Notes: generated from the letters alone by a model not told the origin. A DNA stretch of 64,000 nt from Burkholderiales bacterium (GCA_965279115.1 OZ257137.1:732224-796223), one strand, 5' to 3'. Numbered from the stretch's first letter, positions 274 to 18,166 are shown. Numbers and translations: made by a program.

Positions 274-319
274 AAGGGAACGCCGCCGAAATGCCTGGGA
301 TAAATGTCGGGAGAAGACT

Positions 320-670: not shown

Positions 671-758
671 CTTCCTGCGCCTCCTTCAGAAGGAATGATA
701 GCCGGCCGGCGATGATTCCCGATCCCCGGGTTTCGGCCGGCCCGGGAGGCATCAGGGC

Positions 759-1460: not shown

Positions 1461-1516
1461 GACGCGCCAGTCTGCCGTGACATGCCAGCACGGTCAAGCC
1501 ATGCTGCACTGCCGAA

Positions 1517-1558
1517 TTGACACTGCCAGGGGTGGCGCGTAAATTGGTTTGAAAACCA
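1517..1558 (+). promoter_or_regulatory. sigma70-like promoter (TTGACA-17 nt-TAAATT) overlapping a perfect 14-bp palindrome TGGTTTGAAAACCA; candidate GntR operator
   Basis: TTGACA at 1517-1522, a 17-nt spacer, TAAATT at 1540-1545. The palindrome occupies 1545-1558 (arms TGGTTT/AAACCA) and fits the generic GntR GT-Nx-AC operator shape. A GGAGGAG RBS at 1566-1572 precedes the ATG at 1579. Confidence 0.5.
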
Positions 1559-1578
1559 GACCAGCGGAGGAGACCTGA

Positions 1579-2550
1579 ATGCCGGCCATGCGCTTGCTGT
1601 TGGCGTTGTTTGCTTTTGCCGCGACGCTCCCCGATGCTGTACACGCACAGACGTTTCCTTCCAGGGCGGTGCGCTTCGTGGTGCCTTTCGCACCGGGCGG
1701 CCAGTCCGACGTGGTCGCGCGCACCGTGGGACAGAAGCTGGCGGAGCGCTGGGGCCAGCCGGTGGTCATCGAAAACAAGGCGGGTGCGGCCACCACCATC
1801 GGGGCGGATTTCGTCGCCAAGTCGCCGGCGGACGGTTACACCATCCTGCTGGCGCCGGCGCCCTTCGTCATCACCCAGTACGCCTACCCGAAACTCCCCT
1901 ATGACAGCCGGCGCGATTTCACGCCGGTGACCATGCTGGTGACCAACCCGCTGGTGGTCACGGTCAATCCGGCGCGGGTACCGGCAAAGACCTTCCCGGA
2001 ATTCGTCGCGCTTGCGAAGAAGGACCCCGGCAAGTTCACCTACGGCACGCCGGGCAACGGCAGCCTGCCGCACCTGGCGGTGGAACTGTTCCGCCTGCAG
2101 TCGGGCATCGACGTGCTGCATGTGCCCTACAAGGGCGGCGGCCCCGCGGTGCTGGACATGGTGGCCGGGCAGATCGCCTTCATGTTTGCGAGCCCGCTGG
2201 AAGTCATGCCCAACGTCAAGGCGGGCAAGCTCAATGTGCTGGGGGTCACCTCCGACAAGCGGGTGGCGTACTGGCCCGAGGTACCCACCCTCAAGGAAAG
2301 CGGTTTCAAGGACTACGAGGCCTACGCCTGGTTCGGCGTCACCGCGCCGGCGGCCACGCCGAAGGACATCGTCGCCAAGCTCAATGCCGATATCGTCGCG
2401 GTGCTGAAGTCGCCGGATGTATCCGAACGCCTGGCCGCGCAGGGGGCGGATGTAGCAGCCACCTCGATCGATGATTTCGGCCGCTTCCTTGCCGCAGAAC
2501 ACGCGCGCTGGTCCGCGGCGGTCAAGGCGGCCAATGTGGTTGTGCAGTAA
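1579..2550 (+). CDS. Bug/TctC-family periplasmic solute-binding protein (tripartite tricarboxylate transporter receptor)
   Basis: Signal peptide MPAMRLLLALFAFAATLPDAVHA, then family hallmarks FPSRAVRFVVPFAPGGQSDVVAR, VVIENKAGAATTIG and SPADGYT. Length 323 aa. Confidence 0.9.
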   Translation: MPAMRLLLALFAFAATLPDAVHAQTFPSRAVRFVVPFAPGGQSDVVARTVGQKLAERWGQPVVIENKAGAATTIGADFVAKSPADGYTILLAPAPFVITQYAYPKLPYDSRRDFTPVTMLVTNPLVVTVNPARVPAKTFPEFVALAKKDPGKFTYGTPGNGSLPHLAVELFRLQSGIDVLHVPYKGGGPAVLDMVAGQIAFMFASPLEVMPNVKAGKLNVLGVTSDKRVAYWPEVPTLKESGFKDYEAYAWFGVTAPAATPKDIVAKLNADIVAVLKSPDVSERLAAQGADVAATSIDDFGRFLAAEHARWSAAVKAANVVVQ

Positions 2551-2568
2551 GCCTGACAAGGAAACGAC

Positions 2569-4866
2569 GTGAGTGACTTGAAGACCTACCCGGAAGGCAC
2601 GCCGTTTACCGGCAAGATCGGCCGCACTGCCGCCACCTCGGAACCCGCATGGCCGCTGCCCGCCCAGGCCAAACCCGGTTCGCCCAACGTGCTGGTGTTC
2701 CTGTTGGACGATGTCGGCTTCGCGCAGTTGGGCTGCTACGGCTCGGACATCGCCACGCCCAACTTCGACCGCCTCGCCGCGGGCGGCTTGCGCTACCGCG
2801 ATTTCCACACCACCGCGATCTGCTCGCCGACCCGCGCTTGCCTGCTCACCGGCCGCAACCACCACTCCAACGGCGTGGGCATCATCCAGGAAATGGCCAC
2901 CGGCTACCCCGGCTACAACGGCATGGTGCCCAAGGAAAACGGCTTCCTCTCCGAAATGTTGCTGGCCCAGGGTTACGCGACCTTCGCCATCGGCAAGTGG
3001 CACCTCACCCTGGCCGGCGAATACGCCTCCGGGGCCTCCAAGGCACGCTGGCCGTTGTCGCGCGGGTTCGAGCGCTACTACGGCTTCATCGGCGGCAAGA
3101 CCAGCCAGTGGTCGCCCACCCTGATCCACGACAGCCACTACATCGCGCCGCCCTTCACTGGCGACGAGAGCTACCACCTCAATGCCGACCTGGCCGACCG
3201 CGCCATCGAATACCTGGTGGACCTGCGCACGGTGGCGCCGCAAAAGCCCTTCTTCATGTACTACTGCCTGGGTGCTGGCCATGCGCCGCACCAGGTGGAG
3301 CGCGAATGGATAGAGCGCTATCGCGGCCGCTTCGATTGCGGCTGGGACAAATGGCGCGAAGAGGTGTTCGCACGCCAATTGAAGATGGGCATCGTCCCGC
3401 CCGGCACGAAGATCGCGCAACGGCCCGACCAGGTCAAGGCCTGGGATTCGCTTTCAGCCGACGCCAAAAAGCTCTACGCCCGCCAGATGGAGGTCTACGC
3501 CGCCTTCCTCGAACAGACCGACCACCACATCGGCCGCGTCATCGACCACCTGGAACGCATGGGCGAGCTCGACAACACCATCATCATGCTCGCCTCCGAC
3601 AACGGCGCCTCCGCCGAAGGCGGCGAGCACGGCTCCTTCAACGAATGCCAGTTCCCCAACCGGGTCGAAGCCAGCATCGCGGACAACCTCAAGCACCTGG
3701 ACGAATGGGGCGGCATCAAGTCCTTCACCAATTACGCCTGGGGCTGGGCCTGGGCCGGCAACACCCCGCTGCGGCGCTGGAAGCGCTACCTGCACCAGGG
3801 CGGCATGAGCGACCCGCTGATCGTGCACTGGCCCAAAGGCATCAAGGCGCGCGGCGAGGTGCGCGGCCAGTACGCGCATGTGGTCGACATCACGCCCACC
3901 CTGCTCGACGCGCTGGGCCTGGAACCGCCGCGCGTGCTTAACGGCGTGACCCAACGGCCGCTGGAAGGCACCAGCTTCGCGCACACCTTCAACGACGCGG
4001 CCGTGCCGACGGCCAAGCAGGTGCAGTACTACGAGATGATCGGCTCGCGCGCCATCTGGATGGACGGCTGGAAGGCGGTGGTCGAGCAGCCGCAAGGCGA
4101 CTTCATGACCGAGGAAATGCTCGACGCGCAGAAGTGGGAGCTCTACCACGTGGCCAGCGACTTCTCCGAGAGCAACAACCTGGCCGACCGGCACCCCGAG
4201 AAATTGAAGGAGATGATCGAGCGCTGGTGGATAGAGGCCGGCAAATACAACGTGCTGCCGCTGGATTCGCGCATGCAGTTGCGCATGGGCGAGCGCAAGC
4301 CCTCCACCGTCTCGCAGGGCAACCGCCATGTGTACTACCCCGGCATGGCCGCGCAGTTCGAATACACCGCGGTAAACGTGAAGAACCGCTCGCACAGCAT
4401 CACCGCCGAGGTCGAGATCTCCGCCGCGGGCGCCGAAGGCGTGCTGCTGGCGCATGGCAGCTGGTTTGCCGGCTATTCGCTGTACGTGAAGAACCGCCGC
4501 CTCACCTACGTGCACAACTACCTGGGCCTCACCGAATACCGCGTCACCGCGACCGAAGATCTGCCCGCGGGCAAGGCAGTGCTGCAGTTGCGCTTCACCC
4601 GCACCGGCGAACACCAGGGGCGCGCCGCCCTGTTCGTCAACGGCCGGCAGGTGGGCGAAGGCGAGATCCCGCGCACCATTCCGGCGGTGATCGAAACCTC
4701 GGGCGAGGGCCTGTGCTGCGGCTACGACTCCGGCGTGCCGGTCACGGCGGACTACGTGTCGCCATTCCGCTTTACCGGGCGCATCGCGCAGGTGGTGGTG
4801 GAAACCGGCGAAGGCGCCGGCGTGGACGCCGAGGCGCAGGTGCGCACCGCGTTTTCCGACCAGTAA
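2569..4866 (+). CDS. type I (S1) arylsulfatase, long form with C-terminal extension (765 aa), no signal peptide
   Basis: GTG start after an AAGGA RBS. Contains LLDDVGF, the formylglycine motif CSPTRACLLTGRNHH (Cys codon 2821-2823) and GKWHL. The N-terminus MSDLKTYPEGTPFTGKIGRT is not signal-like. Confidence 0.9.
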   Translation: MSDLKTYPEGTPFTGKIGRTAATSEPAWPLPAQAKPGSPNVLVFLLDDVGFAQLGCYGSDIATPNFDRLAAGGLRYRDFHTTAICSPTRACLLTGRNHHSNGVGIIQEMATGYPGYNGMVPKENGFLSEMLLAQGYATFAIGKWHLTLAGEYASGASKARWPLSRGFERYYGFIGGKTSQWSPTLIHDSHYIAPPFTGDESYHLNADLADRAIEYLVDLRTVAPQKPFFMYYCLGAGHAPHQVEREWIERYRGRFDCGWDKWREEVFARQLKMGIVPPGTKIAQRPDQVKAWDSLSADAKKLYARQMEVYAAFLEQTDHHIGRVIDHLERMGELDNTIIMLASDNGASAEGGEHGSFNECQFPNRVEASIADNLKHLDEWGGIKSFTNYAWGWAWAGNTPLRRWKRYLHQGGMSDPLIVHWPKGIKARGEVRGQYAHVVDITPTLLDALGLEPPRVLNGVTQRPLEGTSFAHTFNDAAVPTAKQVQYYEMIGSRAIWMDGWKAVVEQPQGDFMTEEMLDAQKWELYHVASDFSESNNLADRHPEKLKEMIERWWIEAGKYNVLPLDSRMQLRMGERKPSTVSQGNRHVYYPGMAAQFEYTAVNVKNRSHSITAEVEISAAGAEGVLLAHGSWFAGYSLYVKNRRLTYVHNYLGLTEYRVTATEDLPAGKAVLQLRFTRTGEHQGRAALFVNGRQVGEGEIPRTIPAVIETSGEGLCCGYDSGVPVTADYVSPFRFTGRIAQVVVETGEGAGVDAEAQVRTAFSDQ

Positions 4867-4883
4867 ACGCCCGGGAGAGCCGC

Positions 4884-5855
4884 ATGAGAAAAACGTTCGC
4901 AAGCGTGCTGCTTGGCGCAACCGTGCTGGCCGGCGTGCTCATGCCGATGGGCGACGTCGTCGCCCAGCCCTACCCGTCAAAGCCGATCAAGCTGATCATC
5001 CCCTATGCCCCGGGCGGCAATACCGACATCGTCGCGCGCATCTTCGGGCAAAAACTGGGCGAGCGCATCGCCCAGCCGGTGGTGTTCGACAACCGCGGCG
5101 GCGCCACCGGCACGCTCGGGGTAGGCGTGGCCGCCAAATCGCCCGCCGACGGCTACACCATCGTCATCGGCGACCTGGGCTCGATGGTGATCGCCAACCA
5201 TGCCATCCCCAGCCTGCCGTATCACCCGCTCAAGGACCTGGCGCCGATCGGCCTGGTGACCGGCGTTTCGGTCGTGGTCACGGTCAACCCGCAATCGCCG
5301 GTGACGGGCTTCGAAGACCTGCTCGCCCGCGCCCGCGCCCAGCCTGGCAAGCTCACCTACGGCACCTCCGGCGTGGGTTCGCCCAGCCACATGGCCATGG
5401 AACTGGTGCAGTCGATGACCGGCGTCAGGCTGCTGCATGTGCCGTTCAAGGGCGGCGCGCAGGCGGTCACCGCCGTGATTGGCGGCCAGATCGACTTTCT
5501 GGTCGATGGCGCCGCCTTCGGCCAGGTCAAGGGCGGCCGCCTGAAGGCGATCGCCGTGACCGGCCCGCGCCTGCCGGCCCTGCCCGATACGCCCGGCATA
5601 GGCGAGACCATCAAGGGTTTCGAATTCACCAACTGGTGGGGCTTCCTGGCACCCGCCGGCACGCCGCCAGAGGCGATCAACCGGCTCAACGAGGAATTCA
5701 CGCAGATCGCTGCGCTGCCGGAGATCCGCGACCGCCTGAACGCCCTGGGGCTGGCGGCGCGCAGCGGCACACCGCAGCAATTCGCCGACCACCTCGCAAG
5801 CGAGACCGGGAAGATCGCCCGCATCGTCAAGGATGCCGCGATCAAGTTCGAATAG
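4884..5855 (+). CDS. Bug/TctC-family periplasmic solute-binding protein
   Basis: ATG 4884 gives MRKTFASVLLGATVLAGVLMPMGDVVAQPYPSKPIKLIIPYAPGGNTDIVAR. The track ORF 4134-5855 is an in-frame upstream extension that overlaps the sulfatase. Confidence 0.9.
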   Translation: MRKTFASVLLGATVLAGVLMPMGDVVAQPYPSKPIKLIIPYAPGGNTDIVARIFGQKLGERIAQPVVFDNRGGATGTLGVGVAAKSPADGYTIVIGDLGSMVIANHAIPSLPYHPLKDLAPIGLVTGVSVVVTVNPQSPVTGFEDLLARARAQPGKLTYGTSGVGSPSHMAMELVQSMTGVRLLHVPFKGGAQAVTAVIGGQIDFLVDGAAFGQVKGGRLKAIAVTGPRLPALPDTPGIGETIKGFEFTNWWGFLAPAGTPPEAINRLNEEFTQIAALPEIRDRLNALGLAARSGTPQQFADHLASETGKIARIVKDAAIKFE

Positions 5856-5871
5856 ACCACGAGACACCCAA

Positions 5872-7347
5872 ATGGCACAACGTCCCAACATCCTCTGGTA
5901 CTGCTCGGACCAGCAGCGCCACGACACCATCCGCGCGCTCGGCCAGCCGCACATCGAAACCCCCAATCTCGACGCCCTGTGCGCCAGCGGCGTGGCCTTC
6001 CGGCGCGCCTATACCCAGAGCCAGATCTGCACGCCGTCGCGGGCCAGCTTTCTCACCGGGCGCTACCCCGCCAGCCACCATGTGTACCGCAACGGCAATG
6101 CCTACTTCCCGGCGCACGAAAAGCTGGTCACCCGCCTGTTCGCCGACGCCGGCTACGATTGCGGGCTGGTCGGCAAGCTGCACCTGTCGGCCGCCAAGTA
6201 TTTCGAGCAGCGCCCGGACGACGGCTACCGCATGTTCCAGTGGAGCCACCACCCCACCCCGGACGCGGCGCGCGGCCACGACTACGAAAGCTGGTTGCGT
6301 TACGAGAAGAAGGTCGACCCGATCGAGCTGTACGCCTCCCACAACCAGTTCTGCGGCCCGGGCGTCGCCGCGCAGTACCACCAGACCACCTGGGTCTCGG
6401 AGATGGCGATCCGCTTCATCCGCGAGCAGCGCGACGGCCCCTGGCTGTTGTCGCTCAACCCCTTCGACCCGCACGCGCCCTTCGACGCGCCGCCTGAATA
6501 CCTGGCGAAGGTACGGGCGGAGTCGCTGCCCTTCCCTCTGTTCCGCGACAGCGATATCGAGCGCCAGAAGGCCTTTGTCGCCATCGACCAGCAGACCAAG
6601 GTGGCGGTCGATCCGCGGGTGCGCCGCGAGGGCAGCACGGTGGTCGAGCGCGAGCACGACCTGGTGGCCTCCAAGCCGCCGGATGCCTACGACGCGCTGG
6701 AAGTCAAGGCCAACTACTACGCCATGATCATGCTCATCGACGACCAGTTCAGGCGCATCGTCGACGCCCTGCGCGACAGCGGGCAGCTCGACAACACGCT
6801 GATCGTCTACATGAGCGACCATGGCGAGCTGCTTGGCGACCACGGCCTGATCCTCAAGGGCTGCCGGTTTTTTGAAGGCCTGGTGCACATCCCGATGATC
6901 TTTTCCTGGCCGGAGCGCTTTGCGAAAGGCGTGCAGAGCGAGGCGCTGGTTGAATCGGTCGATGTCGCCCCCACGCTGCTGGAAGCCGCCGGGCTGGCGG
7001 TGCCGGAATCGATGCAGGGCGCCTCGCTCATGCCCATCCTTGAAGGCCGCGCCGATCCGCACCACCACAAGGACCGCGTGATCTCGGAGTTCCACGACTC
7101 CATCGGCGGGCCGCGCCATACCGACCACACCCATGGCTCGATGGTGTTCGACGGTCGCTACAAGAGCGTGGTGTATCACGGCCACCAGGTAGGAGAACTC
7201 TACGACCTGCAGCAGGACCCCGGCGAATTCGACAACCTGTGGAACGACCCCGCCGCGCGTGAACTCAAGACCGAGCGCCTGAAAGCGCACCTGGACGCGA
7301 TGATGGCCACCGTGAGCGCGGGCCCGCCGCGCAGCGTGGCCTACTGA
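5872..7347 (+). CDS. type I sulfatase, short form (491 aa), no signal peptide
   Basis: Starts MAQRPNILWYCSDQQRHD. Formylglycine motif CTPSRASFLTGR (Cys codon 6028-6030), plus MSDHGE and DLQQDPGEFDNLW. Start chosen at ATG 5872, which lies inside track ORF 5833-7347. Confidence 0.9.
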   Translation: MAQRPNILWYCSDQQRHDTIRALGQPHIETPNLDALCASGVAFRRAYTQSQICTPSRASFLTGRYPASHHVYRNGNAYFPAHEKLVTRLFADAGYDCGLVGKLHLSAAKYFEQRPDDGYRMFQWSHHPTPDAARGHDYESWLRYEKKVDPIELYASHNQFCGPGVAAQYHQTTWVSEMAIRFIREQRDGPWLLSLNPFDPHAPFDAPPEYLAKVRAESLPFPLFRDSDIERQKAFVAIDQQTKVAVDPRVRREGSTVVEREHDLVASKPPDAYDALEVKANYYAMIMLIDDQFRRIVDALRDSGQLDNTLIVYMSDHGELLGDHGLILKGCRFFEGLVHIPMIFSWPERFAKGVQSEALVESVDVAPTLLEAAGLAVPESMQGASLMPILEGRADPHHHKDRVISEFHDSIGGPRHTDHTHGSMVFDGRYKSVVYHGHQVGELYDLQQDPGEFDNLWNDPAARELKTERLKAHLDAMMATVSAGPPRSVAY

Positions 7348-7366
7348 AACCACCGAGGAGAAATCC

Positions 7367-9592
7367 ATGACAGACCCCGCATTCGGCGGCAAGATCGGCC
7401 GCACCCGCGAGGAATCCACCCCCTGGTGGCCGGAGCGCAAGGAGGCGCAGAAAGGCAGCCCGAACATCGTCATCGTGTTCATGGACGACATGGGCTGGTC
7501 CGACCCCGGCTGCTACGGATCCGAGATCGACACGCCGCATATCAACGCGCTGGCCGCGCGCGGCGTGCGGCTCACCCACTACACCACCCACGCGATCTGC
7601 TCGCCGGCGCGCGCGGCCTTGCTCACCGGCTGCAACGCGCACGGCGTGGGCACCGGCTGGCTGGCCAACAACCATCCGGGCTACCCCGGCTACTCCGGCG
7701 AGATCCCGCTGGAAGCCGCCACCCTGCCCGAGACCCTGCGCGCCGCCGGCTACGAAACCATCATGGTCGGCAAGTGGCACAACACGCCGGCAGCCGACAA
7801 CGTGCCCGGCGGCTCCAAACACAACTGGCCCTCGCAGCGTGGGTTCGACACCTACTACGGCTTCATGGATGGCGAGACCAACCATTTCTTCCCGGCCCGG
7901 CTGATGCTCGGCAACCAGGTGCTGCCGGTCGACGAGTATCCGCGCGACTACTACACCGGCGACGACTGGATGGACCAGGGCATACGCTTCGTGCGCGAGT
8001 TGCGCGAGAGCAGCCCGCACAAGCCCTTCTTCCTCTACGTGGCCAACAACGCCATGCACGCCCCGCTGCAAGCCAAGCCCTCGGACATGGCCAAGTACAA
8101 GGGCAGGTACGACGCCGGCTGGACCGCCGCCCGCCAGGCGCGCCACCAACGCCAGATCGAGATGGGCCTGATCCCGCCGGATACCAAACTGCCGGCCTCC
8201 GACCCGCGCGTGCCGCAATGGGATGCCACCGATCCGGAGAACCGCCCGCTCTATGCGCGCCACATGGAAGCCTTTGCCGGCATGCTCGACAACGCCGACC
8301 AGAATGTCGGCAAGCTGGTGGCCTTTCTGGAATCGATAGGCGAGCTCGACAACACCATCATCCTGTTCTCTTCCGACAATGGCGGCACCGACGCCGGCGG
8401 CGAACACGGCATGGTGCAGAACAACCGTCGCTATTCCGGCCTGCCCACCCAGCCGCTGGCCGACGAGCGGCGCATGCTGGCGCAACTGGGCGGCCCGCAG
8501 AGCATTTCGCTCTATCCCACCGCCTGGGGCGAGGTGTCGAACACGCCCTTCCCCAGCTTCAAGACCTACACCGGCGGCGGTGGACGGCGGGTGTCCTTCA
8601 TCGCCTCCTGGCCGGCGCGGCTCAAGGACCGCGGCAGTATCCGCCGGCAGTTCATGCATGTCACCGACGTGATGCCGACCCTGCTCGACATGGCGGGGGT
8701 AGCGCGGCTTGAGACCAGCCATGGCAAGCCGGCACGTCCGCTCGATGGCAAGAGTTGCGCGCAGATGCTGCTGGAGGACGCACCCTCGCCGCGCAGCGAG
8801 CAGTACTACGAATGCTGGTCCAACCGTGCCTACTACCGCGACGGCTGGCTGGCGCGCTCGCTGCAGATCCGTGACCGGCCGATCGACATGGACAACTGGA
8901 CCCTGCACAACCTTGCGGAGGACTTTTCCGAATCCACCGACATCGCCGCGCAACATCCGGACAAGCTCAAGGAACTCATCGAGGCCTTCGATGCGGCGGC
9001 TTGGATGTACTTTGTCTACCCGCTCGACAACCGCGGCCGGCCGGGCAAGTTCAGCGACGTGCCGGCCTGGGCGCGCGAGCGCGCCAACCATCCGCGCCGC
9101 TTCCTGCCCGGGTCGCAGACCGCGCACCGCAGCGACGTGTTTCCCCTGGTGGGCAACCGCTCGTTCCGCATCCGCACCCGTTTCGAACAGCGCGCCGGCG
9201 ACGAAGGCGTGCTGTGGTCGCTGGGCGACATCATCGCCGGCATGGTGATGTATGTCGAAGCCGACCGCCTGAACTTTCACTACAACGGCTTTTCCGAGCC
9301 CGCCAATTTTCCGCCGGTCAACCTCGCACCCGGCGCACATGAGGCGGTGATCGAGTACGAGGCGCTCGGCAAGCGGCGCGGCCGGGGACGCCTGCTTCTC
9401 GACGGCGCCGAATGCATTGGCTGGACCGAACTTTCGCCCACCCTCATGCTCGGCCCCTTCGAAGGCATGGACGTGGGCCTGGACCGGCGCGCGCCGGTGT
9501 TCTGGGAACTCTACGAAAGACATGGCGCCTACCGGTACAGCGGTGCCATCGAGGATGTGTGGATCGACCCGGGCGAGCGCGCCACGGCATGA
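7367..9592 (+). CDS. type I arylsulfatase, long form (741 aa), no signal peptide
   Basis: A GAGGAG RBS precedes the start. N-terminus MTDPAFGGKIGRTREESTPWWP. Contains FMDDMGW, CSPARAALLTGCNAH (Cys codon 7598-7600) and GKWHN. It is a paralogue of 2569-4866. Confidence 0.9.
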   Translation: MTDPAFGGKIGRTREESTPWWPERKEAQKGSPNIVIVFMDDMGWSDPGCYGSEIDTPHINALAARGVRLTHYTTHAICSPARAALLTGCNAHGVGTGWLANNHPGYPGYSGEIPLEAATLPETLRAAGYETIMVGKWHNTPAADNVPGGSKHNWPSQRGFDTYYGFMDGETNHFFPARLMLGNQVLPVDEYPRDYYTGDDWMDQGIRFVRELRESSPHKPFFLYVANNAMHAPLQAKPSDMAKYKGRYDAGWTAARQARHQRQIEMGLIPPDTKLPASDPRVPQWDATDPENRPLYARHMEAFAGMLDNADQNVGKLVAFLESIGELDNTIILFSSDNGGTDAGGEHGMVQNNRRYSGLPTQPLADERRMLAQLGGPQSISLYPTAWGEVSNTPFPSFKTYTGGGGRRVSFIASWPARLKDRGSIRRQFMHVTDVMPTLLDMAGVARLETSHGKPARPLDGKSCAQMLLEDAPSPRSEQYYECWSNRAYYRDGWLARSLQIRDRPIDMDNWTLHNLAEDFSESTDIAAQHPDKLKELIEAFDAAAWMYFVYPLDNRGRPGKFSDVPAWARERANHPRRFLPGSQTAHRSDVFPLVGNRSFRIRTRFEQRAGDEGVLWSLGDIIAGMVMYVEADRLNFHYNGFSEPANFPPVNLAPGAHEAVIEYEALGKRRGRGRLLLDGAECIGWTELSPTLMLGPFEGMDVGLDRRAPVFWELYERHGAYRYSGAIEDVWIDPGERATA

Positions 9593-9605
9593 AAAGGAGC
9601 AGGCC

Positions 9606-10592: not shown

Positions 10593-10613
10593 ACTCTCCC
10601 AGGGAGAAGGCAC

Positions 10614-11591
10614 ATGGGCATCGCACGCATTCGTCTGTTTCTGGCCGCGGCATGTTTTTTCAACTGCGTGAGCGGGATGGCGCAATCTTCCGGCGACTAC
10701 CCCAACCGGGCGGTGCGCATGATCGTGCCGCAGGCCGCCGGCGGCGGGCTCGACGCTTCCACCCGGGTGATCGCCACCCGCCTGACCGAAAACCTCGGCC
10801 AGAGCATCGTCATCGAAAACCGCCCCAGCGCCGGCGGCATCGCCGGCATGGAAGCGGTGGCCAAGGCGGCACCCGACGGATATACGGTGCTGATGGCCTC
10901 GGCCACGGTGGCGCTCAACAACGCGCTGGGCATGAAGCTGCCCTACGACCTGGAGCGCGATTTCGCGCCGGTCTCGCTCGGGGTCTCGATCCCGATGCTG
11001 TTCGTCGCGCACCCGGCCAGCGCGTACAGGTCGCTCCGGGATGTGGTCGAAGATTCAAAGCGCCAAAGTGGCGGTGTGGCCGTCGCCATCGCCTCCATCG
11101 GCACGCTGCCGCACCTGCTCTCGGAGATGATGCGTTTCAAGACCGGCGCCAACCTGAACCTGATCTTTTACAAGGGCGCGGCGCCGGCCTCGCTTGACGT
11201 GCTGTCCGGCCAGATCCCGTTTTTCATCGATGCGATCAGCCCGGTGGGCACGCATGTGGCCGCCGGCAAGTTGCGCGCGCTGGCGCTGGCTGCGAAAGCC
11301 CGCTCGCCGCTTTTTCCCGATGTGCCGACGGTGGCCGAGCAAGGCATGCCGGACCTGGTCGGTGCCGCGTTCTACGGGCTGCTGGTCCCGGCCCGCACCC
11401 CGCCTGCGATCCAGCGGCGCCTGCACCAGGCGATGGTCGCCGCGCTCGCCCACCCCGAAGTGCGCGAACGGCTCCTGAAACAGGGCTACGAGATCCACGC
11501 CTCTACCGGCGAGGAGTACGCTGCGTACATGAAAAACGAGATCGGCCGCTGGTCGCCCGTGGTCAAGGCGGCGGGGATCAAGGCCGAGTAA
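10614..11591 (+). CDS. Bug/TctC-family periplasmic solute-binding protein
   Basis: Signal peptide MGIARIRLFLAAACFFNCVSGMAQS, then YPNRAVRMIVPQAAGGGLDASTR, IVIENRPSAGG and APDGYT. Confidence 0.9.
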   Translation: MGIARIRLFLAAACFFNCVSGMAQSSGDYPNRAVRMIVPQAAGGGLDASTRVIATRLTENLGQSIVIENRPSAGGIAGMEAVAKAAPDGYTVLMASATVALNNALGMKLPYDLERDFAPVSLGVSIPMLFVAHPASAYRSLRDVVEDSKRQSGGVAVAIASIGTLPHLLSEMMRFKTGANLNLIFYKGAAPASLDVLSGQIPFFIDAISPVGTHVAAGKLRALALAAKARSPLFPDVPTVAEQGMPDLVGAAFYGLLVPARTPPAIQRRLHQAMVAALAHPEVRERLLKQGYEIHASTGEEYAAYMKNEIGRWSPVVKAAGIKAE

Positions 11592-11617
11592 TCCGGTTGC
11601 GTAGAGGAGGGCGGGAC

Positions 11618-12622
11618 ATGAAAATGCAGCCAATTCGAGCCGCCGCGCGGCGCCTCGCGCTGTGGATGGCCGGCCTGCTGGCAGCGGCGCTGCCGCACAT
11701 CGCACCCGCGCAGGGCGGCGGCGCATGGCCGGCGCGGCCGATCCGCGTGATCGTCTCGTATGCGCCGGGCGGTGTCACCGACATCATCGCGCGCGCGGTG
11801 GCGCAACCCATGGGCGAGGCGCTGGGACAATCGGTCGTGGTGGAAAACCGGCCGGGTGCCGCCGGCGTGATCGGCACCGAACTGGTGGCCGCCGCGCCGC
11901 CCGACGGCCATACGCTGCTGATGTTCGTCGACGGCAACGCGATGATGCCCTCGGCGATTCGCAACCTGAAGCACGACCCGGTGAAAAGCTTCGCCCACAT
12001 CAGCCTGCTCGGACGCGGCTCGCTGGTATTGGTGGCCCATCCTTCGCTGCCGGTGGCGAACCTGCAGGATGTGATCCGCTACGGCCGTGCCAACCCCACC
12101 GCATTATCGTTCGCAACACCCGGAAAAAGCGGCCCGCAACATCTCGCCTTCGAAAGCATCAAGGCAAGCGCCGGTTTTTCCGCCGAGCACATTCCCTACA
12201 AGGGCGGCGGCCAGGCGATCGTCGACGTGGTGGCCGGGCAGGTCAAGCTTGGCATGCTGGGCATGGCGCCCGCGCTGCCGCATGTGAAAACCGGCAAGCT
12301 CAAGGCACTGGTGGTTACCAGCCGCGAGCGTTCGCGCCTGCTGCCGGAGGTGCCGACGGTGGCCGAATCCGGCATTCCCGGCTTCGAGATGGCGCAGTGG
12401 CAGGGCATGGTCGCACCCGCCGGCACCCCGCCGGAGATCCTTGCCCGGCTGCATGCGGAGCTGGTCAAGGCCATGCGCACTCCGGCGGTGATGGAACGAC
12501 TGGCCGCCATCGGCATGGACAATGCCACCAGCAGCAGCCCGGAAGACTTCACCCAGATGGTGCAGGTCGAGACCCGGCGCTTTCCCGAACTGTTCCGCAT
12601 TGCAGGCATCCAACCGGAGTGA
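11618..12622 (+). CDS. Bug/TctC-family periplasmic solute-binding protein
   Basis: ATG 11618 follows a GAGGAGG RBS; the track begins at TTG 11597. Contains WPARPIRVIVSYAPGGVTDIIAR, VVVENRPGAAG and PPDGHT. Confidence 0.85.
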   Translation: MKMQPIRAAARRLALWMAGLLAAALPHIAPAQGGGAWPARPIRVIVSYAPGGVTDIIARAVAQPMGEALGQSVVVENRPGAAGVIGTELVAAAPPDGHTLLMFVDGNAMMPSAIRNLKHDPVKSFAHISLLGRGSLVLVAHPSLPVANLQDVIRYGRANPTALSFATPGKSGPQHLAFESIKASAGFSAEHIPYKGGGQAIVDVVAGQVKLGMLGMAPALPHVKTGKLKALVVTSRERSRLLPEVPTVAESGIPGFEMAQWQGMVAPAGTPPEILARLHAELVKAMRTPAVMERLAAIGMDNATSSSPEDFTQMVQVETRRFPELFRIAGIQPE

Positions 12623-12626
12623 AACC

Positions 12627-14156
12627 ATGGGCAAAAAAACCAACATCCTGTTCATCACCTCCGACCAGCAGCGCGCCGACTGCTATGGCTTTGAAGGACG
12701 GCGGGTGAAGACCCCGCACCTCGACGAAATGGCACGCAACGGCACCCGCTTCTCGGCGGCCATCACGCCCAACCTGGTGTGCCAGCCCTCGCGCGCCTCC
12801 ATCCTCACCGGGCTGCTCCCGCTTACCCACGGCGTATCCGACAACGGCATCGACCTGCCGCCCGCGACAGGCGAAGCGGGCTACGGCGGCACCTTGTCCA
12901 AGGCCGGCTACGCCACCGCGCTGATCGGCAAGGCGCACTTCAGTACCTCGAACTGCTTCGAGCCCACCGGCACGCCGGAATGCACGGTGAGCTGCGCCAA
13001 CTATCCGGCCGACTGGCACGGCCCCTACATGGGGCTTGATCATGTGGAGATGATGCTCGAAGGGCACAACATGTTCCCGCCGATGAAGCCGCCGCTGGGC
13101 CACGCCTACGAGCGCTGGTACCACGCCGACGGCCGCGGCGAAGAGCGCACCGCCCTGTACCGCAAACGCCTGCCGCCGATCAGCGACGCCCACGAAACCT
13201 TCAACTCGGGCCTGCCGGTGGCCTGGCACAACTCCACCTGGATAGGCAATCGCACCATCGACTACCTGCGCGAGCATCGCGACGGCCCGTTCTGCCTGTG
13301 GGCCTCCTTTCCCGACCCGCACCACCCGTTCGATGCGCCCGACCCGTGGTGCTACATGCACTCTCCCGACGAGGTCGAGTTGCCGGTGCACGGCGCGATG
13401 GACCTCGAGCGCCGCCCGTGGTGGCATCGCGCCGCGCTCGAAGGCGTGCCGAAGATGGCCAACGAGCGCCTGCGCGCCTTCCGCGAGAAGTCCTCGCGCA
13501 CGCCGAAGCAGAGCGAGGCGCAGATGCGCGCGTTGATCGCCAACTACTACGGCATGATCTCCCTGATCGACCATCAGGTCGGGCGCATCCGCATCGCCTT
13601 GAACGACCTGGGCCTGGCCGAGAACACCCTGATCGTGTATTCCACCGACCATGGCGACTGGCTGGGTGACCACGGCCTGCTGCTCAAGGGGCCGATGGCA
13701 TACGAAGGCCTGCTGCGCGTCGGCATGCTTTTCGAAGGGCCGGGCGTGCCAAAGGGCAAGGTGGTGGCCGACCCGGTATCGACCCTCGACCTGCCGGCCA
13801 CTTTCTGTGACTACGCTGGCGTCTCCCTGCCCGGCAAGGTACACAGCCGTTCCCTCAAGCCGCTGATCGAAACCGACACCGCCACACGCGATTTCGCACT
13901 CTCCGAATGGGACCTGCGCGCCTCGCGCTGCGGCGTCGACTTGGCGCTGCGCACGGTGCGCACCAAAACCCGCAAGCTCACACTGGAGAAGAACAGCGGC
14001 GCCGGCGAACTCTATGACCTGGCCGAAGACCCGCACGAGATGGACAACCGCTTCGGCGACCCCGCCTATGCCAAGGTGCAACGCGAATTGATGGACATGA
14101 TCGCCAGCCGGCCGGACGACGCCTGCGCGCCATTGCCGCAGATCGGCATGGCTTGA
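12627..14156 (+). CDS. type I sulfatase, short form (509 aa), no signal peptide
   Basis: Starts MGKKTNILFITSDQQRAD. Formylglycine motif CQPSRASILTG (Cys codon 12780-12782), plus STDHGDWLGDHG and YDLAEDPHEMDN. It begins 4 nt after the preceding Bug stop and is a paralogue of 5872-7347. Confidence 0.9.
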   Translation: MGKKTNILFITSDQQRADCYGFEGRRVKTPHLDEMARNGTRFSAAITPNLVCQPSRASILTGLLPLTHGVSDNGIDLPPATGEAGYGGTLSKAGYATALIGKAHFSTSNCFEPTGTPECTVSCANYPADWHGPYMGLDHVEMMLEGHNMFPPMKPPLGHAYERWYHADGRGEERTALYRKRLPPISDAHETFNSGLPVAWHNSTWIGNRTIDYLREHRDGPFCLWASFPDPHHPFDAPDPWCYMHSPDEVELPVHGAMDLERRPWWHRAALEGVPKMANERLRAFREKSSRTPKQSEAQMRALIANYYGMISLIDHQVGRIRIALNDLGLAENTLIVYSTDHGDWLGDHGLLLKGPMAYEGLLRVGMLFEGPGVPKGKVVADPVSTLDLPATFCDYAGVSLPGKVHSRSLKPLIETDTATRDFALSEWDLRASRCGVDLALRTVRTKTRKLTLEKNSGAGELYDLAEDPHEMDNRFGDPAYAKVQRELMDMIASRPDDACAPLPQIGMA

Positions 14157-14184
14157 GCGGCTGGCGCGCAGCGCTGCAACGGCC

Positions 14185-15348
14185 ATGAAGATCGCCGACA
14201 TCGCCTACCGGGTTCTGCACGTAAGCGCCAAGACCAACTGGTCCTTCGTTGAACTGCGCACCGCTGACGGGCTCACCGGCTGGGGCGAATGCTCCCTCAA
14301 CGGCTGGGAGCCCTTGCAGCGCGAATATGCAAACAGCTGGTGGCCAGGCTTGATCGGCGCCGCGGTTGGCGACCTGGCCGCCACCCAGGCAATATGCGCG
14401 ATTCACCAGCACTCACCCGGCGGCCTGGTCGCGCATTCGATCAGGAGCGCGACCGAGCAGGCCTTGCTGGACGCGCTCGCGCAGGCGCGCGGGGTGCCCC
14501 TGTGGAAACTGCTGGGTCCCGCACTGCGCGACGCCGTCGAGGTATACGCCAACATCAACCGGGCCACCCAGCCGCGCACGCCGCAGGGTTTCGCCGCCAG
14601 CGCGCGGTTTGCGGTGGCGCAGGGATACCGGGCGATCAAGCTCGCCCCCTTCGATGGCGTGTTGCCGGCGAACGCCGAGACGGCTGACGGCGCGCGACTG
14701 ATCGCCGCCGCGCACGAGCGCATCCGCGCGGTGCGCGAGGCCGTTGGCGAGGGCGTGCGCGTGATGGTCGATTGCCACTGGCGGCTGACCCCGCGCACCG
14801 CGCGCGAAACGCTAGCCGCCTTGCGCGAGGTCAGGCTGCACTGGCTGGAATGCCCGATTTCCGAGCGCGGCTCGCAGCACGACGAGATTCTGGCCTTGCG
14901 TCGCATCGCCAACTCACAGGACGTGCGCCTGGCCGGCGCGGAAAAGGAGACCGAGGTGGAAGGCTTCCTCCCCTATCTTGAACGCGGCCTGTACGACACC
15001 ATCATGCCGGATGTGAAGTATTGCGGCGGTGTTGGCGCCCTGCTGCGCATAGCGCAGCTTGCCGAACGCCACGGTGTGCAGACCGCGCCGCACAATCCCA
15101 CCGGCCCGATTTGCAACTACGCCAGCGTGCATGCCTGCATGGTCGGCGCCGGCTGCGATTTCCTCGAACTGCAGGTAGGCGAGAGCGGCCTGTTCACCGA
15201 GGCAGTTGACGGGCGCTATCCGGAGTTCGTGGACGGGCACTTCAGGCAGCCGCAACAGGCGGGGATGGGCGCAGCGCTCAACCCGCAAGTGCTGGATGCA
15301 CATCCGTTCGCGGCGGTGAGCTTCGGGCTCGACCCGGCGCTGGGGTGA
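14185..15348 (+). CDS. enolase-superfamily enzyme (mandelate racemase/muconate lactonizing family; probable acid-sugar dehydratase)
   Basis: N-terminal capping domain (WSFVELRTADGLTGWGEC). Barrel motifs VMVDCHWRL, WLECPI, LAGAEKE, IMPDVKYCGGV and APHNPTGPI match the Asp/Glu/Glu metal ligands and catalytic His of this family. Confidence 0.85.
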   Translation: MKIADIAYRVLHVSAKTNWSFVELRTADGLTGWGECSLNGWEPLQREYANSWWPGLIGAAVGDLAATQAICAIHQHSPGGLVAHSIRSATEQALLDALAQARGVPLWKLLGPALRDAVEVYANINRATQPRTPQGFAASARFAVAQGYRAIKLAPFDGVLPANAETADGARLIAAAHERIRAVREAVGEGVRVMVDCHWRLTPRTARETLAALREVRLHWLECPISERGSQHDEILALRRIANSQDVRLAGAEKETEVEGFLPYLERGLYDTIMPDVKYCGGVGALLRIAQLAERHGVQTAPHNPTGPICNYASVHACMVGAGCDFLELQVGESGLFTEAVDGRYPEFVDGHFRQPQQAGMGAALNPQVLDAHPFAAVSFGLDPALG

Positions 15349-16388
15349 CGAGGCGGCCGGATCCCATGCAAACCCCACTTCCGGGAGACCCTCACGTGAC
15401 AATCGACTTGTCCTGCGCGGACCGCAAGCGGCGCAGGCTTTTGCTGGCCGCGACTGCGGCCGCACTCGCCCCGCGCGTAGCGCCGGCGCAGGAATATCCC
15501 TCGAAAACCATCCGCATCGTTTCGCCCTTCTCGCCCGGCGCGACCTCCGACCTGGTCGCCCGCGCGCTCGGTCCCGCCCTCGCCGCCGCCTGGGGTGTGG
15601 GCGTAGTGGCCGAGAACAAGCCCGGTGGCGGCAGCGTGGTGGGTGCGGACCTGGTCGCCAAGAGCGCACCAGATGGCCACACCTTGTTGGTGGCCGCCGC
15701 GGCCATCGGCGTAATCCCGGCGCTGCTGCCCAGGCTGCCCTTCGTGCCCTACAAGGACCTCTTGCCCATCACATTGGTGGGCACCGTGCCCTTCATGATG
15801 CTGGTGCACCCGTCAGTCCCGGCCAAAACCGTGCAGGAGTTCGTCGCTTACGCCAAGGCCAATCCCGGCAAGCTCAATTTCAGCTCCGGCGGCAATGGCA
15901 CCATCCCGCACATGGGCGGCGAGTTGCTGAAACTGCGCGCCGGCCTCGATATGACCCACGTGCCGTTCAAGGGCGGTGCCGATTCGCTGACAGCACTGCT
16001 TGGCGGCCAGGTGCAGATGACCATCGACGGCGGGCCGCACGTGATCGGCCACATCCGCTCGGGCGCGCTGCGCATGCTGGGCGTCGCGACCCTGCAGCGC
16101 CTGGCGGAATTTCCGAACACGCCCACCATCGCCGAATCCGGTTTCCCGAGTTTCGAAAGCAACGCCTGGCAATCCCTGTGGGTGACCGGCGGCACACCGG
16201 CACCGGTGGTGAAGAAGATCTCAACGGAGGTCATGCGCATCCTGCGCATGCCCGAGATGGTCGAGCGCCTGCGCGCCATGGGCGTGACAACGATCGGCGG
16301 CACGCCGGAAGAGGCGGAGACCTTCATCCGCGCCGAAACCACCAAATGGGGCGCTGTGATCAAGGCATCAGGAGCCAAGGCGGAATGA
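15345..16388 (+). CDS. Bug/TctC-family periplasmic solute-binding protein
   Basis: GTG 15345 overlaps the preceding TGA (GTGA). Alternative starts are ATG 15366 and GTG 15396. Contains DRKRRRLLLAATAAALAPRVAPAQEYPSKTIRIVSPFSPGATSDLVAR, ENKPGGG and APDGHT. Confidence 0.85.
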   Translation: MTRRPDPMQTPLPGDPHVTIDLSCADRKRRRLLLAATAAALAPRVAPAQEYPSKTIRIVSPFSPGATSDLVARALGPALAAAWGVGVVAENKPGGGSVVGADLVAKSAPDGHTLLVAAAAIGVIPALLPRLPFVPYKDLLPITLVGTVPFMMLVHPSVPAKTVQEFVAYAKANPGKLNFSSGGNGTIPHMGGELLKLRAGLDMTHVPFKGGADSLTALLGGQVQMTIDGGPHVIGHIRSGALRMLGVATLQRLAEFPNTPTIAESGFPSFESNAWQSLWVTGGTPAPVVKKISTEVMRILRMPEMVERLRAMGVTTIGGTPEEAETFIRAETTKWGAVIKASGAKAE

Positions 16389-17392
16389 GCGCGCCACTCG
16401 CGCGACGTTCCTTCGGCAAATGCGGCCTGACCATGCCGACGCTGGGCTTCGGCGCCAGCGGCATCGCCAAGACCGTACGTGAGGATGCCATCCACATCGT
16501 GCACGCGGCACTGGCCGCCGGCCTCGACCATGTGGACACCGCGCCCTTCTACGGACTGGGCGAAAGCGAGCGGCGCCTCGCGCCGGCGCTCGCCGCCGCT
16601 GGTCACCTGTTCACCCTTTCTACCAAGGTAGGACGCCTGATACGAAGCGGCAGCGACGGCGCGCCGCAATCGGTATTCGATTACTCCGAATCCGGGGCCG
16701 AAACCTCGCTGGCCGAGAGCCTGGCGCGTCTCGGGCGCGACCGCATCGACATGGCGATCCTGCATGACGTGAGCCAGCGCTTCCACGGCGAGCGTACCGA
16801 TGCGGTGTTCGATGAGGCCATGCAGGGCGCGTACCAGGCACTCACGCGCTGGCGCCGCGAGGGCCGGGTGCGTTCCATCGGCATAGGCGTCAACGATTGC
16901 CGCACCTGCCTGCGCGCCCTGCGCGAAGCGGACTTCGACTTCCTGCTGCTGGCCGGTCGCCTCACCCTGCTGGATCACGAGGACTTCGACGCAGTGCTGC
17001 CGGAGGCGCAGAAGCGCGGCGTCGGCGTGATCGCCGCGGCGCCGTTCAATTCCGGCATCCTCGCCATCGGCGCGCGATCTGACGCCACTTTCTTCTATCA
17101 GCCGGCGTCCCAGGAGATTCTCGATCGCACCCGGCGTATCGAGGCGGTGTGCGCGAGCCACCGCGTACCCCTGCCTGCCGCGGCGCTGCAATTTGCGCTG
17201 CTGCATCCGGCCGTGGGTTGCGTGCTGGCGGGCTATCGCAGCGTGGATGAAGTGCGGCAGAACGTCGCGCACGCAAGGCACGCAATCCCGAACGCGTTCT
17301 GGGAGGACTTGCGTGCTGCCGGGTTGTTGTCGGCGTCGGTGGCGCTGCCCGGAACCCCGGCCGGTGGCATGGCCCGCACTGCGGCCCAGTGA
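16385..17392 (+). CDS. aldo/keto reductase (aldose 1-dehydrogenase-like)
   Basis: ATG 16385 overlaps the Bug stop (ATGA). Contains LGFGASGI, LDHVDTAPFYGLGESERRL (AKR Asp/Tyr), STKVGR (Lys) and AAAPFNSGIL. The track ORF 16178-17392 is an upstream extension. Confidence 0.85.
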   Translation: MSAPLARRSFGKCGLTMPTLGFGASGIAKTVREDAIHIVHAALAAGLDHVDTAPFYGLGESERRLAPALAAAGHLFTLSTKVGRLIRSGSDGAPQSVFDYSESGAETSLAESLARLGRDRIDMAILHDVSQRFHGERTDAVFDEAMQGAYQALTRWRREGRVRSIGIGVNDCRTCLRALREADFDFLLLAGRLTLLDHEDFDAVLPEAQKRGVGVIAAAPFNSGILAIGARSDATFFYQPASQEILDRTRRIEAVCASHRVPLPAAALQFALLHPAVGCVLAGYRSVDEVRQNVAHARHAIPNAFWEDLRAAGLLSASVALPGTPAGGMARTAAQ

Positions 17393-17459
17393 TCGTCATG
17401 GTGATCAGGCCGGACGCGACCCGGGCAAACCGGAGGGTGCGGCGCATGAGAGGCGATCG

Positions 17460-17491
17460 CGGATGCGCCCGACCATGCGCATCCGGATTTT
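17460..17491 (+). terminator. rho-independent terminator candidate closing the 12-gene block
   Basis: Perfect 9-bp stem CGGATGCGC/GCGCATCCG (17460-17468 and 17477-17485) with an 8-nt loop, followed by GATTTTG. It lies 68 nt after the AKR stop. Confidence 0.6.
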
Positions 17492-17575
17492 GCCGTGCCG
17501 GCGCCAACCTGCGAGAATCCACAGGGTCGCGCATGACATTACCTTTCCAACCTGCGCTCCCATAGGAGGATATCC

Positions 17576-18019: not shown

Positions 18020-18166
18020 CGGGCGGGTTCCCCTCGCAGCCATACCAGCCTTGCCGCGGGACCCATGGCCCCGGCCCATGCATTCCAATAGACTCCCGTG
18101 GCCAAACGCCAGGGCGATCCTTTCCTGCCCCGCGCCCTCGGCACCGCCCTCCCACCACGGAACACC

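Follow-up and report, generated by a model that had tools for sequence, protein, structure and literature searches.

Uptake of a sulfate ester through a periplasmic binding protein, followed by hydrolysis inside the cell, is the logic of the ats system of Pseudomonas aeruginosa and P. putida, in which one receptor, the ATP-binding cassette (ABC) system AtsRBC and one cytoplasmic formylglycine (FGly) sulfatase of the PAS/AtsA type work under CysB/SftR sulfate-starvation control. Tripartite tricarboxylate transporters (TTT), whose receptors belong to the Bug/TctC family, have been described for citrate (TctCBA), sulfolactate (SlcHFG), terephthalate (TphC-TpiBA), galactarate/glucarate (TctABC; PMC5812351) and alginate oligosaccharides (PMC13390454), and sugar-acid as well as organosulfur ligands therefore have precedent among TTT systems (PMC5812351, PMC13390454). 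Here we describe a block of twelve genes in a 64,000-nucleotide stretch of a Burkholderiales bacterium (GCA_965279115.1 OZ257137.1:732224-796223; hereafter the window, positions being counted from its first letter), in which four S1 sulfatases are interleaved with six Bug/TctC receptors. Its protein families and their logic are familiar, while the combination is uncharacterised and widely conserved. A full-text search of open-access and bioRxiv literature yielded no report linking sulfatases with TTT/Bug receptors or describing the cluster, and our literature search found no TTT receptor reported for a sulfate ester, which agrees with a first-pass annotation, made by a model from the sequence, that had named no characterised pathway of the same composition.

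In comparison with ats, the block (genes G1 to G12) contains predicted PAS/AtsA-like cytoplasmic FGly sulfatases (G2 and G5 match the AtsA structure 1hdh with E values of 1e-78 to 1e-83) and would follow the same sequence of periplasmic binding, ester import and intracellular hydrolysis. It differs in its TTT/Bug receptors, with no ABC components in or beside the block, in the number of sulfatases and receptors (four and six, against one of each), in a predicted additional lectin-fold domain on the long enzymes, in the attached sugar-oxidation genes, and in a GntR/FCD regulator in place of CysB/SftR. With orphan Bugs and TTT systems the block shares PF03401 receptors that carry leaders, four of the six with the canonical G-G-x-x-D of the pincer motif, and the absence of local TctAB in the window is typical of orphan Bugs (PMC5812351, PMC5994714); for a TTT/Bug system it is unusual that four sulfatase genes are interspersed among six receptor genes within a single putative operon, and the G6 subfamily differs from other Bugs in a pincer that reads G-[IVT]-P, not G-G. 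Sulfatase-containing polysaccharide utilisation loci (PULs) of Bacteroidota and the marine carrageenan, ulvan, porphyran and fucoidan regulons likewise combine clustered S1 sulfatases of different subfamilies with uptake and sugar catabolism, and two PDB entries, an exo-L-galactose-6-sulfatase (7lha) and an L-galactose dehydrogenase (7lh6), form a pair that parallels the sulfatase and aldo/keto reductase (AKR) of the block. However, the block contains no SusC/SusD, glycoside hydrolases or lyases (neither SusC/SusD nor CAZyme families were found among the genes of the window), its sulfatases are predicted to be cytoplasmic whereas those of PULs are exported, and its hosts are freshwater or soil Burkholderiales, unlike those of PULs. 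Non-phosphorylative sugar pathways of the L-fucose, L-rhamnose and D-galactonate type offer a further likeness in the aldose-1-dehydrogenase-clade AKR, the galactonate-dehydratase-like G10 and the lactonase-type genes of sister loci, but the set in the window is incomplete, a lactonase, a KD-sugar dehydrogenase and an aldolase not having been seen there, and G10 stays under every equivalog cut-off. In SAR202 bacteria, paralogue expansions of COG4948, COG0667 and COG3119 co-occur with sulfatases (PMC6946804, PMC10444878); sulfatase, enolase-superfamily and COG0667 oxidoreductase expansions occur together, and non-phosphorylative sugar catabolism has been shown by growth (PMC10444878). The sulfatase link in SAR202 is a genome-wide correlation, whereas in the block it takes the form of an apparent operon.

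We consider it most likely that the block serves the import of several small sulfated sugars or sugar acids and their intracellular desulfation, while the fuller proposal of a substrate-inducible operon, repressed by the GntR/FCD protein and using several different small sulfate esters, is one that we hold to be evenly balanced. Twelve plus-strand coding sequences (CDS), called by ORF listing and translation, are packed within positions 1579-17392, and all twelve have a GC content at third codon positions (GC3) of 0.82-0.90, the signature of genuine genes. Neighbouring CDS are separated by 18, 17, 16, 19, 13, 21, 26, 4 and 28 nt, with overlaps in addition, and ribosome-binding sites of the GGAG type (Shine-Dalgarno) precede most of the genes. 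Pfam searches assigned six TctC/Bug receptors (PF03401, E values of 1e-58 to 1e-77), four sulfatases (PF00884, 1e-38 to 1e-60), one enolase-superfamily enzyme and one AKR, so that the twelve genes with their spacing (by ORF calls, translations and GC3) and the family content, GntR/FCD regulator included (by hidden Markov models), came out as the first-pass annotation had described them. Its account of the gene order and starts needs amendment. The order at the 3' end is corrected to enolase (14185-15348), Bug (15345/15366-16388) and reductase (16385-17392), and of its two 4-nt overlaps the one between G11 and G12 (16385-16388) stands, while the one between G10 and G11 vanishes if G11 starts at ATG 15366. 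That start is probably to be preferred over GTG 15345, since the 94%-identical homologue in the related locus L074 is called there (340 aa), and it would place a 17-nt gap after the enolase stop codon and leave a single 4-nt overlap in the block. The packing is operon-like, as had been proposed: gaps are short, a consensus scan of positions 1-19000 found no plus-strand promoter-like site within the block, and a terminator scan found no intergenic plus-strand terminator-like site within it (nine terminator-like matches in the region, fewer than the 13.3 expected from shuffles). Internal promoters or terminators, which the annotation had named as features that would split the block, were thus not found by scan inside it, and we infer that the genes are co-transcribed.

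In front of the block, on the minus strand at 759-1460, lies a divergent GntR/FCD regulator of the FadR subfamily, for which Pfam recovered both the winged helix-turn-helix GntR domain (E = 7e-20) and the FCD domain (E = 1.7e-27), in keeping with its earlier description, and which has a palindrome near the promoter that it faces. The protein scores under every NCBIfam equivalog cut-off, with ExuR, LldR, UxuR and NanR as its nearest families, and it is kept in position with 62-77% identity in the homologous loci L004, L008, L011, L044, L055 and L071 (such numbers denote loci obtained from genome scans). The sigma70-type promoter (1517-1545, plus strand) consists of a -35 box TTGACA (1517-1522), a 17-nt spacer and a -10 box TAAATT (1540-1545); it is the sole plus-strand sigma70-like match in 1-19000, agrees with the consensus at 10/12 positions, and in an alignment of orthologous intergenic regions between regulator and gene 1 TTGACA is invariant and TAAATT is present in 6/7, while spacer and flanks drift. 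The promoter predicted by the first reading is supported by consensus and conservation over seven loci alike. The palindrome reported ahead of gene 1 proved to be a conserved inverted repeat as well, but one that ends at 1563, beyond the 1558 given before: phylogenetic footprinting over seven loci delimits a 19-bp candidate GntR operator at 1545-1563, TGGTTTG-AAAAC-CAGACCA, which differs by one mismatch from the family consensus TGGTCTG-N5-CAGACCA. FadR-like GntR proteins bind sites of the TGGT...ACCA type, and the candidate operator therefore fits a regulator of this kind. Taken as a footprint, the conservation is good evidence for a real promoter and for a candidate repressor site that covers part of the -10 box and the start of transcription, which is expected near 1552.

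Four genes of the block encode S1 sulfatases, with PF00884 scores of 132.8-205.9 bits against a cut-off of 25. Two are long, namely G2 (2569-4866; 765 aa, GTG start; PF00884 E = 1e-60, 1hdh E = 3e-83) and G5 (7367-9592; 741 aa; PF00884 E = 3e-49, 7all E = 2e-81, 1hdh E = 6e-78), and two are short, G4 (5872-7347; 491 aa; PF00884 E = 3e-51, SGSH_C E = 1e-26) and G9 (12627-14156; 509 aa; PF00884 E = 2e-38, SGSH_C E = 4e-16). All carry Cys-type FGly motifs of the form CxPxR-xxxLTG (CSPTRACLLTG in G2, CTPSRASFLTG in G4, CSPARAALLTG in G5 and CQPSRASILTG in G9). Residues 38-554 of G2 and 31-541 of G5 align with P. aeruginosa AtsA (1hdh), a member of SulfAtlas subfamily S1_4 (PMC5066984), across the catalytic domain, and by PDB matches AtsA is the closest characterised relative of G2 and G5, not of G4 and G9. 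The nearest structures of the latter two are 7oz8, 4upl/4upi/4uph, 6pt4 and the phosphonate monoester hydrolases (PMHs) 2vqr/2w8s, which are short cytoplasmic-type S1 enzymes, and both score under all NCBIfam equivalog cut-offs. More than 3600 homologues of G5 were retrieved, and G9 belongs to a 90% cluster of 61 members, its orthologues being 84-92% identical. A signal peptide was found in none of the four, as claimed before: in-frame codons upstream of the starts are hydrophilic and number 4-45 (only 4 open codons in the case of G2), and the first 50 residues reach a maximum KD12 hydrophobicity of at most 1.2. G2, G4, G5 and G9 are thus predicted to be cytoplasmic Cys-type FGly sulfatases. 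Beyond the catalytic domain, G2 has a C-terminal extension of about 210 aa (about 4230-4863) and G5 one of residues 545-741 (8999-9589), neither with a Pfam match. The AlphaFold model of G5 residues 545-741 (pLDDT 86.8) suggests a LamG/ConA-like beta-sandwich, and the top PDB matches of this model in Foldseek are sialic-acid-binding CBM40 and laminin-G domains (TM about 0.55). A C-terminal domain of lectin fold is odd for a cytoplasmic "arylsulfatase".

The six receptors score 197.9-260.1 bits for PF03401 against a cut-off of 27. They are G1 (1579-2550; 323 aa, E = 3e-77, leader VHA|Q, canonical pincer PFAPGGQSD), G3 (4884-5855; 323 aa, E = 3e-58, with a leader and a motif PYAPGGNTD that is invariant among orthologues), G6 (9606-10592; 328 aa, E = 1e-66, RRRVL leader, PFPPGIPLD), G7 (10614-11591; 325 aa, E = 3e-59, duplicated in L002, L008 and L044), G8 (11618-12622; 334 aa, E = 4e-74, 4 nt ahead of G9) and G11 (15366-16388; 340 aa, or 347 aa if GTG 15345 is used, E = 6e-69). 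Hydrophobic leaders ending in A-x-A|Q are present in 6/6 and RR motifs in 3/6, as expected of TTT receptors, and the N-terminal leaders noted on first reading are thereby corroborated; the predicted localisation, Bug proteins periplasmic and sulfatases cytoplasmic, accordingly holds at the level of targeting signals. The best PDB matches of G1 are BugE (2dvz) and a terephthalate binder (8hka). Pairwise identity is 30-40% among the six Bugs, 37% between G2 and G5 and 33% between G4 and G9, and these low values suggest old paralogues with distinct specificities. The domain-1 "pincer" of Bug proteins, P-F-x-A-G-G-x-x-D, binds the carboxylate of the ligand by way of two water molecules (PMC5812351). 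This motif is nearly universal. G-G-x-x-D is found in G1, G3, G7 and G8, whereas G6 has G-I-P-L-D and G11 G-A-T-S-D, deviations that are kept in orthologues. The G6 motif (aa 42-50) takes the subfamily form P-F/Y-P-P/A-G-[IVT]-P/A-x-D, which is maintained down to 55% identity in the orthologues compared (L003, L004, L010, L011, L016, L018, L019, L021, L050, L051, L056, L071 and L074), and the changed pincer may mark a different anchoring of the ligand's anionic group.

Judging from synteny, the block is a real gene cluster that is conserved among uncultured Burkholderiales of fresh water and soil. Scanning genomes with G5 gave 69 loci, almost all of them in metagenome-assembled genomes of streams, lakes and soils. 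Synteny of the regulator and G1-G9 extends to at least 10 independent assemblies, at 70-92% amino acid identity (L002, L004, L008 without G4, L011 up to G7, L044, L055 together with L051, L071, L074 and L075), and L074 and L075 show synteny over the full set of twelve genes, so that the search of other Burkholderiales for the same gene order, suggested with the first-pass annotation, was positive for the core. Downstream of G9 the loci diverge: in L071 and L051 a Bug gene, the large and small subunits of AcnX and an alpha/beta hydrolase follow (L051 ends inside AcnX), after which L071 resumes with orthologues of G11 (86% identical, ahead of the AKR) and G12 (70%), the final Bug-AKR pair being retained; in L004 an additional sulfatase and Bug follow; and in L044 an Amidohydro_2 gene of lactonase type is inserted between G7 and G8. 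The AcnX and hydrolase genes, which take the place of the enolase of the window, lie at 16873-22226 in L071 and 5870-8051 in L051, and the Amidohydro_2 insertion lies at 15192-16100 in L044. The pattern suggests that non-orthologous enzymes have taken over a dehydratase or lactonase step, and owing to the variable tail we define the conserved unit as the regulator, G1-G9 and the terminal Bug and AKR genes, combined with a dehydratase/lactonase-type module that can be exchanged.

The association of sulfatase and receptor extends beyond this core. G6 is the conserved partner of G5, a pair maintained at 55-64% identity in L016, L018, L019, L021 and L050, and a triad of G5-like sulfatase, G6-like Bug and enolase-superfamily gene recurs in L016, L018 and L050. 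Orthologues of G5 (70-86% identical) stand directly after TctC-TctB-TctA in L001, L005, L007, L022 and L057; the loci with a complete TctCBA beside G5 orthologues belong to Alphaproteobacteria and Ectothiorhodospiraceae, and in L080 a complete system lies within 8 kb of a 69% homologue. In Tagaea (L015), a sugar ABC transporter of the CUT1 type precedes the two long sulfatases. Among the 118 ORFs that neighbour the sulfatase in 20 non-syntenic loci, a Pfam census counted 12 TctC, 9 extra sulfatases, 8 MR_MLE, 4 short-chain dehydrogenases/reductases (SDR), 4 ABC permeases, 3 TctA, 3 TctB and 3 TauD; MR_MLE proteins thus make up about 6-7% of the neighbours, above the 2.8% of CDS that is the top genome-wide proportion reported among prokaryotes (PMC10444878). 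The homologue in L079 (Chloroflexota) has no sugar or transport neighbours, and the SAR202 parallel therefore remains a genome-level analogy.

Two enzymes at the 3' end would connect desulfation to carbon metabolism. G12 (16385-17392; 335 aa; PF00248 E = 1e-40, 140.1 bits against a cut-off of 24) is placed by its matches in the aldose-1-dehydrogenase clade of AKRs: L-galactose dehydrogenases take all of the first five places among its PDB matches (E = 8e-28 to 2e-19, best 9w6y and 7lh6), and JGI annotates its homologues as D-threo-aldose 1-dehydrogenase. Besides the 70% orthologue that closes the block of L071, homologues of 41-43% identity occur near G5 orthologues in L001, L014, L015 and L033. 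In a further locus, L081 (1-10954), a 69% AKR homologue is accompanied by an SGL lactonase, a RuBisCO-like protein, an acid-sugar kinase of the DUF1537 type and a GntR/FCD regulator, with a divergent sulfatase-TctC pair also nearby; we take this AKR neighbourhood to resemble apiose or tetronate-type oxidative sugar pathways. G10 (14185-15348; 387 aa; MR_MLE_C E = 7e-46, MR_MLE_N E = 1e-10) appears from its profile scores to be a galactonate-dehydratase-like member of the enolase superfamily, without established identity as a galactonate dehydratase: it scores 145.5 bits against the NCBIfam equivalog PRK14017, under the cut-off of 311, and its best PDB match (E = 2.5e-27) is among structural-genomics entries only. 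Judged by its distribution, G10 is a lineage-specific insert outside the conserved unit, and the idea of the enolase as the pathway-defining gene was rejected, as it is absent in most syntenic loci and its 56-66% homologues neighbour only TctC. An assignment as cis-3-hydroxy-L-proline dehydratase, prompted by the replacement of G10 by AcnX in L071 since both families include such enzymes, was likewise not upheld (27.6 bits against an NCBIfam cut-off of 500) and remains a lead only.

On these grounds we propose the following course. Each periplasmic Bug/TctC receptor would capture a single anionic sulfated ligand (one receptor per sulfatase is suggested by the pairs G1-G2, G3-G4, G5-G6 and G8-G9) and would pass it to TctA/TctB membrane subunits whose genes would lie in other parts of the genome, a dependence on distal components that follows from the lack of TctAB in the window. 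The four Cys-type FGly sulfatases would then hydrolyse the ester in the cytoplasm to sulfate and an alcohol, and the carbon skeleton, most likely an aldose or sugar acid, would be oxidised by G12 to a lactone or acid, which an interchangeable dehydratase module, here G10, would dehydrate. The accessory genes (aldose dehydrogenase, acid-sugar dehydratases and lactonase-type hydrolases), the predicted lectin fold and the ABC transporter of L015 point to sugars or sugar acids. The uptake and desulfation pathway put forward in the first-pass annotation is thereby strengthened in its link of sulfatases, TTT receptors and a dehydratase/oxidoreductase step, by way of synteny and the TctCBA, MR_MLE and AKR neighbours, but weakened in that the enolase is lineage-specific. 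Sulfated organic acids, its suggested substrates, become one option only, because the aldose-1-dehydrogenase type of G12 and the CUT1 context of L015 make sulfated neutral sugars at least as likely.

Several observations weigh against this proposal. The coupling of orphan Bugs to distal TctAB is assumed in the field and has rarely been demonstrated. A tblastn search with TctA and TctB of L001 found neither in the 64-kb window, in which no complete TTT is therefore encoded, and scanning of the window genes revealed no formylglycine-generating enzyme (FGE), sulfate exporter, lactonase or downstream aldolase. G10 varies between lineages as an insert, and its 56-66% homologues adjoin only TctC, without a sulfatase. 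In L037, L045 and L079 a G5 homologue occurs singly in a housekeeping neighbourhood, and the one in L080 (1-14053) has a TauD/SsuA-like sulfur-scavenging context. Conservation is also lacking for the hairpin after the last gene. Orphan Bugs may also act in sensing (PMC5994714), and PAS-type enzymes are classically aryl-sulfatases without identified natural substrates (PMC5066984).

The main rival is sulfur scavenging, in which uptake and desulfation would be the same and their purpose would be sulfate for assimilation where fresh water or soil is poor in it, as in Pseudomonas atsA/atsRBC; we regard it as a serious but clearly less probable explanation, and the same holds for its corollary that the AKR and enolase genes would be incidental neighbours. 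The resemblance of the long sulfatases to P. aeruginosa AtsA, a sulfate-starvation enzyme (PMC5066984), speaks for it, together with the lack of a carbon-catabolic enzyme in the core G1-G9 (followed in L004 only by a sulfatase and a Bug), the lack of a sulfate exporter in the block, the origin of relatives from streams, lakes and soils, the position of the L080 homologue near TauD, an SsuA/NMT1-type ABC system and a GntR/FCD regulator, and the occurrence of TauD in 3/118 neighbour ORFs. The surroundings in L080, where a PLP decarboxylase, two TctC genes and TctB-TctA are found as well, look like organosulfur scavenging. Yet the local regulator of the block is a GntR/FCD protein with a conserved candidate operator, not a LysR protein of the CysB/SftR type, the AKR-Bug pair is kept at the block end across lineages, and dehydratase and lactonase-type genes have been recruited repeatedly into the block. 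No cys, ssu or tau genes were seen among the scanned window genes, and a sulfur-sparing composition, admittedly a weak test, is not apparent either (Cys+Met 3.33% in the block against 3.52% in the rest of the window). Were the substrates instead carboxylate-bearing aromatic sulfate esters, such as sulfated phenolic acids or conjugates of the flavonoid or bile-acid type, the mechanism would be unchanged and no sugars would be involved. The closeness of G2 and G5 to S1_4 "arylsulfatases", the similarity of G1 to BugE and terephthalate-binding TTT receptors and the aromatic carboxylates among characterised Bug ligands (PMC5812351, PMC8556258) would fit, but ring-cleavage or aromatic-catabolic genes are absent in and beside the block, the accessory genes resemble those for aldose dehydrogenases, acid-sugar dehydratases and lactonases, a lectin-like fold is predicted for the C-terminal domain, and the long sulfatases of L015 follow a sugar-type ABC system, all of which makes this substrate class improbable in our view.

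Two further explanations appear very unlikely to us. Some or all of the "sulfatases" might be PMH-type phosphonate-monoester/phosphodiester hydrolases and the block thus serve phosphorus or xenobiotic ester metabolism. The PMH clade is notoriously promiscuous, and G4 and G9 do match 2vqr and 2w8s (E = 1e-40 and 1e-33) and reach 176-218 bits for NCBIfam PehA; these scores, however, are far under the PehA cut-off of 900, the bona fide sulfatases 7oz8, 4upl and 6pt4 score equally well or better for both proteins, both share the putative operon with two PAS-type sulfatases, and no pho or phn genes lie nearby. Equally hard to favour is a lack of functional coupling, with the Bug genes as orphan paralogues or sensors that do not deliver substrates to the sulfatases. 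The 12 TctC genes without TctAB in 64 kb would be consistent with it, and tandem arrays and orphan Bugs are common, with sensing roles proposed (PMC5994714); against it, Bug-sulfatase pairs are conserved over wide divergence (G5-G6 down to 55-64% identity), the same sulfatase stands in an operon-like row with TctC-TctB-TctA in other classes, and intergenic gaps of 4-26 nt with Shine-Dalgarno sequences separate the genes.

Uptake and intracellular desulfation of sulfated sugars or sugar acids thus remains our preferred reading. A bolder version, that the six Bugs include the first sulfate-ester-specific TTT receptors and that the block is a multi-substrate organosulfate catabolic operon for sulfated sugar monomers, we put forward only tentatively and consider somewhat doubtful; the G6 subfamily with its altered pincer may then anchor the sulfate group in place of the carboxylate, and, if true, sulfated sugar monomers released from algal or plant polymers may nourish Burkholderiales of fresh water and soil. 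Ligands are known for only a minority of the hundreds of betaproteobacterial Bug/TctC receptors, and the conserved pairing of receptor and sulfatase provides concrete, cloneable pairs for screening. Sulfate esters are a major pool of organic sulfur in soil and fresh water, and the block represents a possible route for their uptake and mineralisation inside the cell, not via exo-enzymes. Sulfate-ester receptors, if real, would assign functions to orphan Bugs and to the very large class of long lectin-fold cytoplasmic "arylsulfatases", whereas sulfur scavenging with known chemistry would make the result a useful annotation, not a discovery.

At the downstream boundary, a hairpin at 17460-17491 (plus strand; by minimum free energy a 9-bp GC stem and an 8-nt loop, followed by TTTT) may be a weak intrinsic terminator. 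The terminal hairpin with T-tract of the first-pass annotation does fold strongly (17460-17485, -36.6 kcal/mol, z = -2.7), but its T-tract has only 4 T, for which reason the terminator scan, with a threshold of five, missed it, and neither the 3' arm nor the T-tract is preserved in L074 and L075, the closest relatives, a point against it as the end of the unit. Since it is not conserved, we do not take the hairpin as marking where the operon stops. The non-coding segment 17500-17575, upstream of a CBS-domain gene (17576-18019), is almost invariant relative to L074/L075, unlike the hairpin, and may contain the promoter or leader of the unit that follows.

In the remainder of the window, a second Bug-rich island (17576-27376; CBS protein, enoyl-CoA hydratase, four TctC, CoA-transferase III, GST, CMD and LysR), syntenic in L074, is probably a separate CoA-dependent acid catabolic cluster. 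No riboswitch or other Rfam family was matched in the block, the sole match in the window being a tRNA (61908-61981). A plasmid origin was rejected, with only unrelated short plasmid matches, and housekeeping genes in the right part of the window indicate that the region is chromosomal. The MFS transporter that adjoins the GntR gene in L071 and L004 has a 77% homologue at 28769-29944, 11 kb downstream of the block, and the N-terminus of another MFS/sugar transporter runs off the left window end (1-273, minus strand). At 35283-39346 on the minus strand lie an MlrC-like M81 peptidase (DUF1485 and MlrC_C), a 413-aa ORF without a Pfam match and a weakly beta-lactamase-like ORF; an MlrC-like gene is also found near the sulfatase of L001.

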